Source: Lachnospiraceae bacterium
GTDB taxonomy: Bacteria; Bacillota; Clostridia; Lachnospirales; Lachnospiraceae
NCBI GenBank assembly: GCA_028693705.1
Contig: JAQUUX010000004.1
Coordinates: 779 to 64,778, forward strand
Reading direction: 5' to 3'
Length of the DNA stretch: 64,000 nucleotides
Shown: in pieces, positions 3,527-53,007 of the stretch
How the letters are laid out: each line of letters opens with the position of its first letter
Numbering within the stretch: position 1 is the stretch's first letter
Program-made: the position numbers and the translations under genes
The notes under the pieces: generated by a model
What the model saw: the letters and a program-made list of their open reading frames with translations, nothing else
What the model was told of the DNA's origin: nothing
The model's database searches: none

Positions 3527-4012
3527 ATGAAACGTATATATTCCGTTTTGGTAGAAAACAGATCCGGTGTTTTGTGCAAGGTAGCCGGTCTTTTCTCCAG
3601 AAGATGTTTTAATATCGACAGTCTGGCCGTTGGTGAAACAGACGATCATGCGGTATCGTGCATGACTATTGTCAGTTCTGGTGATGAGCGTACCATTGAA
3701 CAGATTGAAAAGCAGTTAAATAAAAAACTGGATGTTATTAAAGTAAAGACTTTTGATGAAAATTCCAGCGTCAGCAGGGAATTAATGCTGATAAAAGTAA
3801 AATATAATAAATCTACCAGAAAAGAGATCATGGAAATCTGTGACATTATGAAGGCACAGATAGTGGATATGTCTAAGCGTCAGATGATCATCCAGATCTG
3901 CGATACGCCGGAAAAAATCCAGTTGTTAATACATATGTTACAGTCTATCAGCATTGTGGAAGTAGCACGTACCGGTACCCTGGCATTACCTAAATGTGCC
4001 GATACAGATTGA
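3527..4012 (+). CDS. ilvN: Acetolactate synthase small (regulatory) subunit, copy 1
   Basis: 161 aa. N-terminal ACT domain (SVLVENRSGVLCKVAGLFSRRCFNIDSL) plus the C-terminal small-subunit domain. GGAG RBS upstream. Sits directly after ilvB. Confidence 0.85.
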   Translation: MKRIYSVLVENRSGVLCKVAGLFSRRCFNIDSLAVGETDDHAVSCMTIVSSGDERTIEQIEKQLNKKLDVIKVKTFDENSSVSRELMLIKVKYNKSTRKEIMEICDIMKAQIVDMSKRQMIIQICDTPEKIQLLIHMLQSISIVEVARTGTLALPKCADTD

Positions 4013-4204: not shown

Positions 4205-4714
4205 ATGAGAAAAAAAGTATTTCAGCTTCTGGTTGATAATACTTCTGGTGTATTAAGCCGTATATCCGGTTTGTTTGCCAGACGTGGTTATAATATTGAG
4301 AGCATCACGGCAGGCCTTACATCAGATGAAAATGTTACCCGTATTACCATAGTTGCATCGGGTGACGATGAGATATTGGATCAGATTGAAAAGCAGGTTG
4401 CGAAGCTGGTGGATGTTCGTGAAATACAGGAACTAAAGCCGGATGACAGTGTATACAGAGAACTTTGTCTGATCAAAGTAAAAGCATCAGCAGAACAGAG
4501 ACAGGGTGTTATTTCCATAGCAGATATTTTCCGTGCGAAGATTATCGATGTATCGCCGGAAAGCCTGATTGTGGAACTGACTGGAAATCAGTCAAAAATA
4601 GACGCGTTTATCAGCCTGTTATCATCTTTTGAAATATTAGAACTGGCGAGAACAGGTATTGCAGGTTTATCAAGAGGCCTTGGATATGAATCGTTTATGG
4701 AAGGTAGACTTTAA
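4205..4714 (+). CDS. ilvN: Acetolactate synthase small (regulatory) subunit, copy 2 (paralog)
   Basis: 169 aa. ACT domain (QLLVDNTSGVLSRISGLFARRGYNIESI) plus the C-terminal domain. Clearly homologous to, but diverged from, the ORF at 3527-4012. Confidence 0.85.
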   Translation: MRKKVFQLLVDNTSGVLSRISGLFARRGYNIESITAGLTSDENVTRITIVASGDDEILDQIEKQVAKLVDVREIQELKPDDSVYRELCLIKVKASAEQRQGVISIADIFRAKIIDVSPESLIVELTGNQSKIDAFISLLSSFEILELARTGIAGLSRGLGYESFMEGRL

Positions 4715-4746
4715 GGGAGACCTTTTAGCATAAAATTATTAATTAA

Positions 4747-5794
<1,048 letters not shown>

Positions 5795-5796
<2 letters not shown>

Positions 5797-6424
5797 ACTG
5801 CAGTTTAGTAACTCAAAAAAATAATGTTTATAATGAGACGGCAATGGTGTGGGTGTGTATCCTTCCATTGCCGTTTACACGTATAAGAGCCGCTACATCA
5901 TTCCACGAAGATACTTGCCCTTTAACGCTAACGGCCCCAATCGCCATCCTGGCTCTAAGGGGCCTTTCAAGCCATTTATGGCTTTGGCATCCATGCCCGG
6001 AATAGCTGGGTTACGACTGGAATGATTAGCGGCTCTAATACGTGCGCTCAGGCAATAGAAGAATACACACCCGCACCACTGCCTGTTCATTACATTCGCT
6101 ATTCTTTTCAAGTTGCCAATCTACAGTTAGTCCAGTCTGTAGCTGAGGCCAGGCTATTGCAAATTTTCAGTTGCCGTAACTGGGGTCTTTGCGCCCCAGG
6201 GCACCGCAAACGGTAGCTTGAAGGAAATAAACATTGCCGTAAAACGAGGTTCAGCCGTGTATCGTATGCGAACAAGCACTGTAAACACGTCTGTACTTAG
6301 TTCGCGTCTTGTGCGAACTTATGTACAGCTACGTGTTTACCGTAGTGAGAACGGGCTTGTGAGCATATGATACACGGCTGAACCGTCACTTTACATCAAT
6401 CTTTATTCCTTTAAACTGCAGTTT
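5795..6424 (+). repeat. Copy A of a non-coding, palindrome-rich repeat element of about 630 bp, unclassified. It could be a structured RNA gene or a non-autonomous mobile element.
   Basis: Bounded by the perfect palindrome AAACTGCAGTTT at 5795-5806 and 6413-6424. Full-length homolog at 51177-51787 and a partial inverted homolog at 9302-9570. Giant imperfect hairpins at 5846-6077 and about 6209-6424. No credible ORF. Confidence 0.9.
6248..6384 (+). repeat. 137-nt imperfect hairpin, the near-invariant core of the repeat element (copy A)
   Basis: GGTTCAGCCGTGTATCGTATGC (6248-6269) pairs with GCATATGATACACGGCTGAACC (6363-6384). Inner stem GTAAACACGT / ACGTGTTTAC, with the apex around TCTTG near 6308. 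The same asymmetric bulges occur in all three copies. Confidence 0.85.
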
Positions 6425-7341
6425 TATTGCTGATATTGATTCATAAAGGTAAGAAATTCTTCCACAGCAGGATTCTGGCTGATCTTGGATAAGGCAGCAA
6501 ATCCGATCTTACGGGAAGGAATGGCTTCATCCAGGTTATATTCCAGAAGTTCACCGGAGGCCAGTTCTTTTTCTACAAATTCTCTGATGACACAGGCAAT
6601 TCCCAGATCTGTTTTAGCAAAATCAATCAAAAGATCCATGGTGGAAAGTTCAATGATATTTTCGGGGTGGAGAAGCGGTAGCCTTAAATGCTGCTGAACG
6701 AACTGACGGGACATATTTTGCTCATCCAATAACAAAAAGGTTGCATTTTCTTCAATACTGCCGGCAGTGGAGCCCATTCGTTCCATCAGATTATGATAGT
6801 ATGCAGGAGAAGTTACAAACATATCATGAATTTCCCGAAGAGGTGTAAATGCGATGCCGGCTGCATTTCCGGCAGCTTCTTCCGGTTCACCGATTAAACC
6901 AATGTCGGCTTTTCCATTTTTCAGTTTTTCAATTGTACCATAGCTGTTTTGACAGGAAATTGTGATTTTAATGTGAGGATGATTTTTGATAAATTCTTTT
7001 AACATGGGAAGTAATACAAATTTGCAAAGTGTAGAACTGACGCCAATGGTGATTTCGCCCATTCCAAGCTCATTCCTGCGATTTAAAAGATCCTCGCCAT
7101 ATTGCAGGGATCTTAGCGCTTCGTTTACCTGCTGAAATAGTATTTCACCTTCGGCAGTCAGCTTCACGCCTCTGGAATTGCGGTAAAATAGTTTTGTATC
7201 CAGTGCACTTTCCAATTTGCTGATAGATTTTGAAACTGCCGGCTGGCTGATGAAAAGTTCCTTTGCTGCTGCAGATATATTTTTTGTAGCGGCAACTTTA
7301 TAAAACACTTGATATAAGTTCAGGTTATCAAAAGCTTTCAT
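6424..7341 (-). CDS. LysR-family transcriptional regulator
   Basis: 305 aa. N-terminal wHTH (ISAAAKELFISQPAVSKSISKLE) plus a LysR substrate-binding domain. Divergent from leuCD and convergent with ilvC. Confidence 0.85.
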   Translation of the reverse strand: MKAFDNLNLYQVFYKVAATKNISAAAKELFISQPAVSKSISKLESALDTKLFYRNSRGVKLTAEGEILFQQVNEALRSLQYGEDLLNRRNELGMGEITIGVSSTLCKFVLLPMLKEFIKNHPHIKITISCQNSYGTIEKLKNGKADIGLIGEPEEAAGNAAGIAFTPLREIHDMFVTSPAYYHNLMERMGSTAGSIEENATFLLLDEQNMSRQFVQQHLRLPLLHPENIIELSTMDLLIDFAKTDLGIACVIREFVEKELASGELLEYNLDEAIPSRKIGFAALSKISQNPAVEEFLTFMNQYQQ

Positions 7342-8814: not shown

Positions 8815-9303
8815 ATGAAAGCAGCAAAAGGTAGTGTTTTTAAATATGGAGATAATGTGGATACAGATGTTATTATTCCTGCGAGATATCTGAACTCTTC
8901 AGATCCTGCAGAATTAGCAGAGCACTGTATGGAAGATATTGATAAAGATTTTATTCATTCAGTAAAAAAAGGAGACTTAATCGTAGCAGAGAAAAACTTC
9001 GGCTGCGGTTCCTCTAGAGAGCATGCGCCGATTGCTATTAAAGCAGCCGGTGTGAGCTGTGTTATTGCAGAAACTTTTGCCAGAATTTTTTATCGTAACT
9101 CTATTAATATAGGTCTTCCGATCATTGAATGTCCGGAAGCTGCAAAAGCAATTCAGAACGGTGATGAAGTAGAAGTGGATTTTGATTCCGGAATGATCAC
9201 TGATGTAACAACCGGTAAACAGTTTAAAGGACAGGCATTTCCGCCTTTTATGCAGAAAATTATTGATGCAGAGGGATTGATTAACTACATTAATATGAAA
9301 TAA
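8815..9303 (+). CDS. leuD: 3-isopropylmalate dehydratase small subunit
   Basis: 162 aa. Aconitase swivel domain ([27 protein letters not shown]). Directly follows leuC. Confidence 0.9.
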
Positions 9304-9570
9304 ACTGCAGGTTAAAGAAATAAGGATTGACGTAAAGTGACGGTTCAGCCGTGTATCATATGCTCACAAGCCCGTTTTCACTACGGTAAACACGTAGCTG
9401 TACATAAGTTCGCACAAGACGCGAACTAAGTACAGACGTGTTTACAGTGCTTGTTCGCATACGATACACGGCTGAACCTCGTTTTACGGCAATATTTATT
9501 TTCTTTAAGCTACAGTTTGTGGTGCCCTGGGGCGCAAAGACCTCAATTACGGCAGGTGAAAAATTGCAAC
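9302..9570 (-). repeat. Copy C of the repeat element: the 3' palindromic module plus about 70 nt, inverted relative to copies A and B
   Basis: This is the reverse complement of about 6150-6424. The core (9343-9479) differs from copy A at 1 position. It starts as AAACTGCAGGTT, overlapping the leuD TAA (9301-9303). Homology ends near 9569. Confidence 0.9.
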
Positions 9571-9654
9571 AGTTTGCAGAACTTGAAAATACTTTCCCAA
9601 ATATGTTACCATACCTTTATTGTTCAGAAAGTGGAGAAAAAACAATTGAAACAT

Positions 9655-46038: not shown

Positions 46039-46500
46039 ATGTCCAGACACTATTCTATGGAACAACGAATACAGGTTAGAAAAATGCTTCAAAATACCGA
46101 TTCGAAAAATAAGGAACAGCTTTCAAAAATACATCATTTTCTTACAGCACCTGAGGAAATCACAGCAGAAACAACAGAGCCAAAAGTCGAAATGTCATAT
46201 ATCGATCCCGGACTTCAGACGGGGAAATACTGGAAAAACTTTCAATGGCGGGTTGTGGCCTTCGTTTTTCTGTTTTCGGGATTAATTTTATTGCATTTAA
46301 AGGAATTACAAAATCCGGAATATGATTTTTTTGGAATCACATCCATGGAAGTACAAGCGGCGATTACAAAAGAATTTGATTTTAATGCACATATCCCGTA
46401 TACTTTTAGGGATGAATGGAAAAGTGTATTTTATCAACTAACGCAAAAGGAACTTAATTATGAATCAGAATACAACACAGAAGCTGGCACTGACGGATGA
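46039..46500 (+). CDS. Hypothetical single-pass membrane protein
   Basis: 153 aa. AGGAGG RBS. One TM segment (VVAFVFLFSGLILLHL). Confidence 0.55.
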   Translation: MSRHYSMEQRIQVRKMLQNTDSKNKEQLSKIHHFLTAPEEITAETTEPKVEMSYIDPGLQTGKYWKNFQWRVVAFVFLFSGLILLHLKELQNPEYDFFGITSMEVQAAITKEFDFNAHIPYTFRDEWKSVFYQLTQKELNYESEYNTEAGTDG

Positions 46501-48352
46501 TATCTTGCTGGCAATTGAAAAGCCTGCCCGTTACATCGGAAATGAAGTAAATGCGGTAATAAAAGACAAAGAAAAAATTGATATCCGAATGGCGATGTGC
46601 TTCCCGGATGTTTATGAAATCGGAATGTCTCATTTGGGAATTCAGATCCTTTATGATATGTTAAACCATTATGAAGATACCTGGTGCGAAAGAGTTTATT
46701 CTCCGTGGGTGGATTTAGATGCCATTATGAGAGAACGACATATTCCGCTATTTGCTCTGGAATCTCAGGATCCGATTAAAGATTTTGATTTTTTGGGTAT
46801 TACGATTCAGTATGAGCTGTGCTATACCAATATTTTACAGATTCTGGATCTGTCAGATATTCCATTGGAAGCAAAGGACAGAACCTGGGAACACCCCATT
46901 GTCATCGGTGGTGGTCCATGTACCTATAATCCGGAACCCATTGCACCATTTTTTGATCTGTTTTATATTGGCGAAGGAGAGACCAGATATCGCGATTTAC
47001 TGGATCTGTATAAGAAATGTAAAGCAGAACATAAGTCCAGGGAAGAGTTCTTATTGGAAACAGCCAGAACAATTCCCGGTATGTATGTGCCACAGTTCTA
47101 TGATGTGACCTATAAAGAAGACGGCACCATTGAAAGCTTTACTCCAAACAAAGAAGGGGTGCCTGCTACCATAACAAAAGAAATGGTAACGGACTTAACG
47201 CATACCACTTATCCGGAAAAGCCTGTAGTACCTTTTACCAAGATTACTCAGGACCGGGTTGTGTTGGAAATACAAAGAGGCTGTATCAGAGGCTGCCGTT
47301 TCTGTCAGGCAGGACAGCTTTATCGTCCGGTTCGTGAAAAGGATGTGGACACTTTAAAGCAGTATGCTGTTACGATGTTAAAGAATACCGGACATGAGGA
47401 AATTTCTCTTAGCTCCTTAAGTTCAAGTGATTATTCGGCATTAAATGAATTAATAGAATTTTTAATTGAAGATTGCGATAAGAGAAGAGTCAATATTTCA
47501 TTGCCTTCTCTTAGAATTGATGCATTCAGCCTGGATGTAATGAGTAAAGTGCAGGATGTAAAGAAGAGCAGTCTGACTTTTGCACCGGAAGCCGGCACAC
47601 AGAGACTTCGTGATGTAATTAACAAAGGACTTACCAGAGAAGATATTCTAAATGGATCCATTGAAGCCTTTAAGGGCGGCTGGTCCAGGGTTAAGCTTTA
47701 TTTTATGCTGGGACTTCCTACGGAAACAGAAGAAGATATTGCCGGTATCGCAGAGCTTAGCAATGAAATTGCAGCAGCTTATTTTGAAACAGTTCCGAAG
47801 GAGGAACGTTCCAACGGCAGTATCCAGATTGTAGCCAGTACCTCCTTTTTTATTCCAAAGCCATTTACACCATTTCAGTGGGCAAGAATGTGTACCAAGG
47901 AGGAATTTTTGGACAAGGCTTCTCTGACCAGGAAAGCCATCATGACCCAGTTGAACCAGAAGCGTATCAAATATAACTGGCATGAAGCTGATGCCAGTGT
48001 AATGGAAGGTATTCTTGCAAGGGGCGACCGAAAGATTGCATCGGTTATTTTAAGTGCTTATAAAAAAGGCTGCTTTTATGATGCCTGGGGTGAATATTTC
48101 AAGAACGATGTATGGATGGAAACATTTGCTGAGTGCAACGTTGATCCCGATTTTTATACGGTCAGAGAACGTTCTCTGGACGAGATTTTCCCATGGGATT
48201 TCTTAAGCTGTGGCGTTTCCAAGGATTTCCTGAAACGAGAGTGGCTTAGGGCAACTACCGAAGGTGTTACCACACCAAACTGCAGATTGCAGTGTCAGGG
48301 ATGTGGAGCCAATCAATATGGTGTGGGTGTCTGCACAGAAGGGAGATCGTAA
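46460..48352 (+). CDS. B12-binding-domain radical SAM protein (TIGR03960-like)
   Basis: 630 aa. Contains KPARYIGNEVN and the radical SAM cluster RGCIRGCRFCQAG. It has the conserved partner gene downstream. Confidence 0.8.
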   Translation: MNQNTTQKLALTDDILLAIEKPARYIGNEVNAVIKDKEKIDIRMAMCFPDVYEIGMSHLGIQILYDMLNHYEDTWCERVYSPWVDLDAIMRERHIPLFALESQDPIKDFDFLGITIQYELCYTNILQILDLSDIPLEAKDRTWEHPIVIGGGPCTYNPEPIAPFFDLFYIGEGETRYRDLLDLYKKCKAEHKSREEFLLETARTIPGMYVPQFYDVTYKEDGTIESFTPNKEGVPATITKEMVTDLTHTTYPEKPVVPFTKITQDRVVLEIQRGCIRGCRFCQAGQLYRPVREKDVDTLKQYAVTMLKNTGHEEISLSSLSSSDYSALNELIEFLIEDCDKRRVNISLPSLRIDAFSLDVMSKVQDVKKSSLTFAPEAGTQRLRDVINKGLTREDILNGSIEAFKGGWSRVKLYFMLGLPTETEEDIAGIAELSNEIAAAYFETVPKEERSNGSIQIVASTSFFIPKPFTPFQWARMCTKEEFLDKASLTRKAIMTQLNQKRIKYNWHEADASVMEGILARGDRKIASVILSAYKKGCFYDAWGEYFKNDVWMETFAECNVDPDFYTVRERSLDEIFPWDFLSCGVSKDFLKREWLRATTEGVTTPNCRLQCQGCGANQYGVGVCTEGRS

Positions 48353-51176: not shown

Positions 51177-51787
51177 AAACTGCAGTTTAGAAACTTGCAA
51201 ATAATAATTATAAAGAGACGGCAATGGTGCGGGTGTGTATCCTTCCATTGCCGTTTACACGTATAAGACCTTCTACATCATTCCATAAAGGTATTCGGTT
51301 GCTTCCGCTAACGGAATCCAATCGCCATCCTGGCTCGGGATTCCTTTCCGGGCATCCATGCCCGGAATAGCTGTTTTGCAGCTGTAATGATTAGAAGGTC
51401 TAATACGTGTGCTCAGGCGATGGAAGGATACACACCCGTACCACTGCCTGTTCGTTACATTTGTTATTCTTTTAAAGTTGCCAATCTGCAGTTGCCTCGG
51501 TCTGTAGCCAAGGCCAGACTATTGCAACTATTCATTTGCCGTAACTGGGGTCTATGCTTCATCGGCACCACAAACTGCAGCTTAAAGAAAATGAATATTG
51601 CGTAAAACGAGGTTCAGCCGTGTATCGTATGCGAACAAGCACTGTAAACACGTCTGTACTTAGTTCGCGTCTTGTGCGAACTTATGTACAGCTACGTGTT
51701 TACCGTAGTGAGAACGGGCTTGAGAGCATATGATACACGGCTGAACCGTCACTTTACATCAATCTTTATTTCTTTAAACTGCTGAAC
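51177..51787 (+). repeat. Copy B of the palindrome-rich repeat element (full length)
   Basis: Starts with AAACTGCAGTTT (51177-51188) and ends with a degenerate AAACTGCTGAAC (51776-51787). Collinear with copy A. The 3' 177 nt differ from A at 2 positions. The 5' part is much more diverged, with indels. Confidence 0.9.
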
Positions 51788-52835: not shown

Positions 52836-52860
52836 GATTCCTGAAACGAAAGATGATGCG

Positions 52861-52897
52861 GGCTTCAAACAGCTATTGTTTGAAGCCTTTTTTTCAC
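52861..52897 (+). terminator. Rho-independent terminator after rpmA
   Basis: GGCTTCAAACA / TGTTTGAAGCC followed by TTTTTTT. Confidence 0.8.
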
Positions 52898-53007
52898 TTG
52901 TAATAAAGCTAACAATACCGAAGCATGTATTGCTTAAACCGGCATGGTTATAATAAAAATGCCTGTTTCGTTATTGTTAGCTTGCAACATTCAGAATGGA
53001 GAATCAT

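Follow-up and report, generated by a model that had tools for sequence, protein, structure and literature searches.

A composite palindromic repeat with a TwoAYGGAY core in the ilvC/LysR spacer of a Lachnospiraceae bacterium, a candidate non-autonomous mobile element

TwoAYGGAY (RF01731) has been an orphan motif since 2010, when it was described from the human gut, Clostridiales and gamma-proteobacteria with a closing stem, P1, that is 'often very large' (Weinberg et al. 2010, PMC2864571). Its loops strongly match the CsrA-binding motif, and it has been named as a possible CsrA sponge in Clostridia (PMC4333381). No other functional proposal was found in the literature, the content of one 2026 preprint aside. 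By word count, 'AYGGAY' occurs 56 times in this preprint (bioRxiv 10.64898/2026.09.22.753630, September 2026), including in 'AYGGAY element' and 'AYGGAY loci', and transposase, recombinase, nuclease and CsrA are scarcely mentioned there; the preprint may overlap with the present findings on AYGGAY elements. In the original alignments the human-gut copies lie within palindromic repeats that exceed 400 nt and end differently (CAGACA...TGTCGTC), one copy has a nested hairpin insertion, one contig carries two inverted copies, and recurring REP-like hairpins follow the Psychromonas copies (Weinberg 2010 supplementary alignment). Because of these contexts, a repeat-element setting seems general for the family; a statement to this effect was not found in the literature, again with the content of the same preprint aside.

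The locus described here agrees with the TwoAYGGAY family in several respects: the core of its left module, A, scores above threshold in both full copies, a P1 of great length encloses two adjacent hairpins with AYGGAY-type loops, the host belongs to a gut-type lineage of the Clostridia, and the motif is present in more than one copy, as the family is multi-copy in the genomes bearing it. It differs from the family in a second loop that is one base short, in an extra 17-nt hairpin in copy 1, in the position of the motif at the centre of a 334-bp fold-back with AACTGYAGNTT ends, and in the linker and the further long hairpin that accompany the motif.

Hairpin MITEs (Correia elements, RUP, ERIC/IRU, Nezha) resemble the element in being non-coding, multi-copy and intergenic with terminal inverted repeats, in a flanking TA that is compatible with an IS630-type TA duplication, in their location at gene ends where co-transcription is possible, and in the occurrence of truncated copies. 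In contrast to these, the present element reaches the upper size limit (610-630 bp), is a composite of separately recurring modules and owes the conservation of pairing over its full length to compensatory changes; neither a parent IS nor a transposase was found here, and the TA duplication is putative. Like a MITE, the element is short and non-coding, with three copies in 64 kb and pieces in a second MAG, all at unrelated loci. BIMEs (REP mosaics, RAYT Y1 transposases) and the dRS3-bounded NIMEs of Neisseria are likewise mosaics of palindromic units in either orientation with short recurring motifs between them, sited after stop codons and between convergent genes and with plausible roles in the stability of mRNA 3' ends. 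The element is not assigned to REP/BIME: the mosaic is present, but its units measure 80-330 bp against about 35 bp for REP, its boundary motif (CTGCAG/CTACAG/CTGTAG, aligned as AACTGYAGNTT) is neither REP with 5' GTAG nor dRS3, and no RAYT-like gene was seen. The CsrA-sequestering sRNAs (CsrB, CsrC, RsmX/Y/Z) share the presentation of GGA motifs in hairpin loops and differ in that the present element has just two candidate GGA sites per copy, no promoter or terminator of its own is predicted, and the motif lies inside a long duplex and a repeat element. The first TwoAYGGAY loop, ACAUGGAUGU-like, is presumably close to the selected high-affinity CsrA site.

The ilvC/LysR spacer is probably, if by no means certainly, a copy of a composite, palindromic, non-coding mobile repeat of the non-autonomous MITE/BIME-like kind. 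The bounded composite, the shared end motif, the hairpin family formed by modules D and X and the case for mobility are new and are based on five loci in two MAGs; the TwoAYGGAY core was known.

Boundaries, copies and modules of the element

The window is the whole 64,000-nt stretch of DNA that was analyzed, with a GC content of 39%, and its host is a poorly sampled Lachnospiraceae lineage. The element occupies the entire space between ilvC (4762-5796) and LysR (6424-7341, minus strand). The first-pass annotation had recorded the palindrome AAACTGCAGTTT at both ends of this space, overlapping the ilvC TAA on the left and the LysR stop codon on the right; both occurrences are exact, and the overlaps agree with the ORF coordinates. 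The TA of the ilvC TAA stands immediately before AACTGCAG at the left terminus, and AAACTGCAGTTTA constitutes the terminal inverted repeats at either end of the composite. With one mismatch or less, the 12-mer AAACTGCAGTTT has six matches in the window, compared with 0.33 expected, and none of 100 shuffles reached this number. Avoidance of PstI sites was considered and rejected, CTGCAG being not under-represented (30 observed, 11.7 expected). At 48277-48288, within the 3' part of ORF 46460-48352, AAACTGCAGATT stands alone; it differs from the end motif by one mismatch and may be there by chance or as a target-like site without an element.

BLASTN of the region against the window gave 84.7% identity between copies 1 and 2 over 626 nt and an inverted match of 6154-6424 at 9302-9572 (94% over 271 nt), which belongs to copy 3. 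Copy 2 is flanked by a 133-aa ORF and by the rplU promoter, and its right terminus is shortened to AAACTGC. Copy 3 begins at the TAA of a leuD-like gene and, from its make-up, looks like a deletion derivative of the composite. Two further copies had been announced and both exist, but only 51177-51782 is full length, 9302-~9592 being the right module with part of the linker in inverted orientation. The description of the interior as free of a credible ORF holds: the sole ORF common to copies 1 and 2 (64/72 aa) is frameshifted in copy 2 and interrupted by a stop codon in the composite on contig L003 of a second genome (see below), for which reasons a coding reading was rejected, and no ORF is conserved across the copies.

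Table 1. Location of the copies, modules and motifs in the window
Feature	Position	Strand	Remarks
Copy 1 of composite element (A-L-D)	5795-6424		630 bp, fills the whole ilvC/LysR spacer
Left terminal motif AAACTGCAGTTT	5795-5806		exact match
Right terminal motif AAACTGCAGTTT	6413-6424		overlaps LysR stop codon
Module A	5795-6128	-	334-bp fold-back around TwoAYGGAY, ~120 pairs, right end AATCTACAGTT
TwoAYGGAY (RF01731) in copy 1	5872-6050	-	70.4 bits
Extra small hairpin AAGCCATTTATGGCTT	5969-5984		in copy 1 and L003, missing from copy 2
Linker L	6129-6207		~80 bp, small hairpins
Module D	6208-6424	+	217-bp fold-back, three-way junction, conserved side hairpin with GNRA-type loop GTGAGAAC
Copy 3, inverted and truncated	9302-~9592		D 9302-9520, partial L 9521-9572, ~12-nt A-end remnant AACTTGAAAA
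Copy 2, full composite	51177-51782		A 51177-51497, L 51498-51570, D 51571-51782
TwoAYGGAY (RF01731) in copy 2	51252-51415	-	98.6 bits, antisense to both flanking genes

The element consists of three units, A, L and D (Table 1). The arms of module A (5815-5872 and 6051-6108), together with the outer pairing, make the whole of 5796-6128 one fold-back. A left hairpin of about 232 nt had been placed at 5846-6077; a fold-back does lie there, but it is larger and has the wider limits just given. In the region of the linker the short hairpins CTACAG..CTGTAG and CTGGGG..CCCCAG, also noted earlier, were located at 6121-6142 and 6180-6199, and the terminal hairpin at the right end was recovered at 6205-6424 with a folding energy of -106.4 kcal/mol (z = -12.6 versus shuffles). 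All 15 module ends examined align on AACTGYAGNTT, a motif of about 11 nt. Ends of the integron attC type (RYYYAAC / GTTRRRY) were also considered, and GTTTAGT and GTTTAAA do not fit them.

Rfam 15 models were searched with cmscan. Only two matches in the whole window reached the gathering threshold, both to TwoAYGGAY (threshold 43 bits) and both covering the full length of the model (1-168); relative to the model, copy 1 has a 17-nt insertion in the first hairpin region. Two adjacent hairpins with AYGGAY-type loops are present, of which loop 1 is CAUGGAUG and loop 2 is CCAGGAUGG, that is A-GGAU, one base shorter than the consensus, and the closing P1 is extended to about 120 pairs over 5796-6128. 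Since the core of the left half belongs to an already described Rfam family, part of the novelty is removed, and the earlier term 'unclassified' is wrong for this half; module D has no Rfam match. ROOL, GOLLD, OLE, raiA, HEARO, IS605-orfB and Clostridiales-1, the families named at first as the ones to look for, had no match in the window at threshold or in 5700-6500 at E <= 10, and the permissive search of 5700-6500 (E <= 10) gave nothing besides TwoAYGGAY above noise.

The first-pass annotation had offered two interpretations, a large structured RNA and a new non-autonomous mobile element. A single structured RNA of about 600 nt in the class of ROOL, GOLLD and OLE would be in keeping with the A-L-D arrangement that is kept in three copies and with the very low folding energy of the whole element (about -290 kcal/mol). 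It is nevertheless very unlikely: no Rfam large-RNA family matches, D occurs without A (copy 3) and with another partner (contig L002, below), the modules fold separately and do not pair with one another over long range, the two strands hardly differ in how well they fold, and no promoter or terminator is predicted.

Genomic sites and evidence for mobility

A scan of 185,579 species genomes with a 19-mer of module D identified one other MAG, Lachnospiraceae bacterium STD2_226 (JAQUYA01), in which at least four pieces of the element are distributed over two contigs, L002 and L003, with different flanks. On L003 the A-L-D composite recurs beside unrelated genes, with 94.7% identity to copy 1 over 563 nt, and a 69-nt remnant of the A end (5848-5916) follows immediately after another stop codon. 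On L002 the order is inverted L, a fold-back termed X (965-1200), L and D, and an L-only fragment is found at 40-100. The composite is thus present with identical architecture at three unrelated loci in two genomes, and truncated and rearranged derivatives exist (copy 3, L003 5848-5916, L002 40-100 and the X mosaic of L002). The Logan contig L001 ends 27 nt into the element and contig L003 begins inside D, from which it follows that assemblies break at the repeat. The mosaic element on L002 begins about 25 nt past the stop codon of a two-gene cassette (174-901); from translations read by eye, this cassette encodes a putative Phd/YefM-type antitoxin and a putative RelE/ParE-type toxin.

The element is extremely rare in public data. 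The D-module 19-mer had no occurrence in viral contigs or in JGI metagenomes, and a 21-mer of the A arm had none in viral contigs. Plasmids and phages gave no BLASTN match to the whole element, and a spurious D-module ORF, used as a protein query against other assemblies, retrieved nothing. This rarity, and nothing else, speaks for a local duplication or assembly artefact confined to the contig, a concern raised in the first-pass annotation for the case that relatives lack the copies. The artefact reading is refuted because independent assemblies carry the modules, namely the two contigs of STD2_226 and the Logan assembly SRR22315505; the copies moreover differ by 6-15%, including compensatory changes, and the probability left to it is negligible.

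The genes around the copies are housekeeping genes (two ilvH-like genes, ilvC, LysR, leuCD, and genes for a NusG-II protein, NUDIX and rplU-prp). The tandem acetolactate synthase small-subunit genes (ALS_ss_C + ACT) upstream of ilvC are located at 3527-4012 and 4205-4714. As in the first-pass annotation, no transposase was seen: Pfam detected neither transposase nor recombinase in 10 of the ~60 window ORFs (three opposite-strand ORFs plus the genes beside the copies), none was noticed in the ORF translations of L002 and L003 read by eye, and an autonomous element bounded by such ends did not turn up.

Each of the six outer junctions has the sequence TA + A(2-3)CTGCAG or its mirror image, and in the ilvC, LysR and leuD-like genes the TA and the first A of the element form the TAA stop codon. 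Internal module junctions are without TA. Judged by these junctions, the flanking TA would fit a target duplication like that of IS630/mariner elements; just as well, it may belong to an inverted repeat of 14 nt. In exact-protein look-ups for empty sites, IlvC (with two start codons), the leuD-like product and L21 were not on record, and LysR was found only on a 1.2-kb Logan contig. Because no empty site was obtained and the nearest LysR homologue is just 57% identical, we infer the insertion boundaries.

Predictions placed neither a sigma-70-like promoter above background nor an intrinsic terminator inside any of the copies; good canonical terminators are predicted elsewhere in the window. 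The relative L124 has kept the LysR/leuCD block (LysR 56% identical), with plain intrinsic terminators after LysR and leuD and no element. These data bear on the possibility that the element is a domesticated structural repeat of the REP/BIME or ERIC type that no longer moves, terminates or insulates transcription between closely packed or convergent genes, protects mRNA 3' ends and spreads rarely, by recombination. The window copies do lie directly after operon-end stop codons (ilvC, LysR, leuD-like) or just upstream of the rplU promoter with no other terminator there, L124 has its intrinsic terminators at the corresponding places, and the hairpins are very stable. However, they are not followed by a U-tract, a 600-bp structure far exceeds what a terminator needs, and the shared termini of the modules, together with their reshuffled order, speak rather for an enzyme that acts on the ends. 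Domestication also overlaps with the mobile-repeat reading, as it describes a present role and not an origin, and as an account of its own it is considered doubtful. Also in the window, a 26-nt inverted repeat (52906-52983, 85% complementary, 26-nt loop), which has no Rfam match at gathering threshold, lies between a predicted terminator (52860-52888) and an ORF starting at 52996, which we take to be a putative obg.

According to the favored interpretation as a mobile repeat, the composite A-L-D would move as a unit, mobilized in trans by an enzyme encoded elsewhere in the genome, which would recognize the shared terminal motif and/or the hairpins. The element would land on TA at gene ends, and would now occupy positions where the relative has intrinsic terminators. 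Given such positions and the very stable hairpins, the latter probably serve as the 3'-end structure of the flanking transcripts and as a barrier to read-through and exonucleases; this role may be a by-product or domesticated. The mobile element proposed in the first-pass annotation thus gains from the composite at three loci in two genomes, the truncated derivatives, the single end motif and the contig breaks, whereas an empty site, a clear duplication and an enzyme were not found in the searches described above. In practical terms, the element replaces operon-end terminators and breaks short-read assemblies in this Lachnospiraceae lineage.

Conservation of base pairing and strand

The base pairing of the hairpins is maintained by compensatory substitutions. 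Module A has seven compensatory pairs among three copies. Module X of L002 is a diverged relative of D; an assignment of A-type termini to X was dropped on end alignment. In the core alignment of D and X, 18 of 63 pairs are changed on both sides (4.0 +/- 1.6 in shuffles) and 98.7% of the cells pair, while sliding the 3' partners by 1-3 columns as a control left two double-changed pairs at most. The side hairpin occurs in the variants GTGAGAAC, GTGAAAAC and GCGAAAGC, with a GNRA-type loop (GAGA, GAAA and GAAA) and a compensatory change in the stem. The D/X hairpin is a candidate for a new structured family; the compensatory evidence, from just two lineages, is unusually clean. A covariance model of the D core (R1) was searched on the metagenomic loci L004-L100 plus the window, L002 and L003; it detected no D-type hairpin in these first 97 of the 120 metagenomic loci treated below and no further member in the window.

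Mismatches in the arms show no strand bias (G:T versus A:C = 6/12, 5/3 and 12/10 in A, ~4/4 in D). Lacking a strand signal, the long stems resemble DNA palindromes, or hairpins that can be used on both strands. The TwoAYGGAY loops and the side hairpin of D are strand-specific and lie on opposite strands of the composite. The TwoAYGGAY strand of copy 1 can be transcribed only via read-through from LysR; TwoAYGGAY is antisense to both neighbors in copy 2 and co-directional with the downstream gene in L003, and its orientation is thus not fixed. The side hairpin of module X (L002 1084-1091, minus strand) is exactly GCGAAAGC, which we take to be one of the extraordinarily stable DNA mini-hairpins of Hirao and colleagues; this makes single-stranded DNA as plausible as RNA for the form that the modules take.

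The copies might alternatively be genes or 3'-UTR modules for trans-acting regulatory RNAs, in which the GGA loops of TwoAYGGAY would sequester CsrA (Gardner & Eldai 2015), D would act as another structured RNA in its own right, and the multiple copies would raise the dose, by analogy with CsrB, RsmY and RsmZ. The loops GCAUGGAUGC and GCCAGGAUGGC are kept in all copies and recur in many unrelated metagenomic contigs, TwoAYGGAY is a strong match to the CsrA-binding motif (PMC4333381), the structure is preserved by compensatory changes, and the D side hairpin keeps its GNRA-type loop across variants, with a compensatory change in the stem. The absence of predicted promoters and terminators from every copy, the antisense position of copy 2, which is the best-scoring one, and the different orientation to the neighbors at different loci point the other way, as do the long arms without G-U strand bias, the truncated remnants, which represent decaying copies, and the opposite strands of the TwoAYGGAY sense and the D GNRA-type loop; nor is a csrA gene present within the 64-kb window. 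A regulatory RNA is on balance unlikely, although it is an alternative of some weight.

Pairing of the full stems over ~85-120 bp and the conservation of the TwoAYGGAY loops across phyla exceed the needs of a transposase site; this counts against the mobile-repeat reading and suggests that the folded nucleic acid has a function of its own. We attach little confidence to a rather speculative variant of the mobile-repeat reading: TwoAYGGAY and D would be the functional cores of a hitherto unrecognized, structure-dependent class of mobile elements, the folded strand (DNA or RNA) with its invariant AYGGAY loops and GNRA-type hairpin would be the substrate or cofactor of the trans-acting enzyme, and the AACTGYAGNTT palindrome would be the cleavage or target site, leading to adjacent insertion and mosaics. 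If true, it would give a 16-year-old orphan, TwoAYGGAY, a function. The position of TwoAYGGAY at the centre of a bounded, reshuffled and decaying unit beside a second structured hairpin, taken with the repeat contexts in the original alignments, hints at mobile-element biology for the motif.

Occurrence of the two-hairpin core in metagenomes

A metagenome scan for both AYGGAY loops yielded 120 loci, none of them related to the present element; four of the 120 reach the TwoAYGGAY threshold, with the core alone. The loop pair GCAUGGAUGC/GCCAGGAUGGC with good stems, below the TwoAYGGAY threshold, was seen in many high-GC environmental contigs (L004, L019, L024, L082, L016, L065, L095, L103, L106 and others). 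Going by these contigs, the distribution of the two-hairpin core may be much wider than that of the Rfam family. One gamma-proteobacterium-like contig of 1.8 Mb (L081) contains two threshold-passing TwoAYGGAY cores, at 4441-4517 (minus strand) and 4682-4753 (plus strand), inverted in one spacer between genes that, from translations read by eye, are putatively L-serine dehydratase-like and NUDIX-like.

Unrelated to the element, contig L003 carries a 54-bp direct repeat (4842-4895 and 4942-4995, 98% identical, 100 bp from start to start with a 46-bp gap) in the spacer between ORFs 4354-4839 and 5004-5330.
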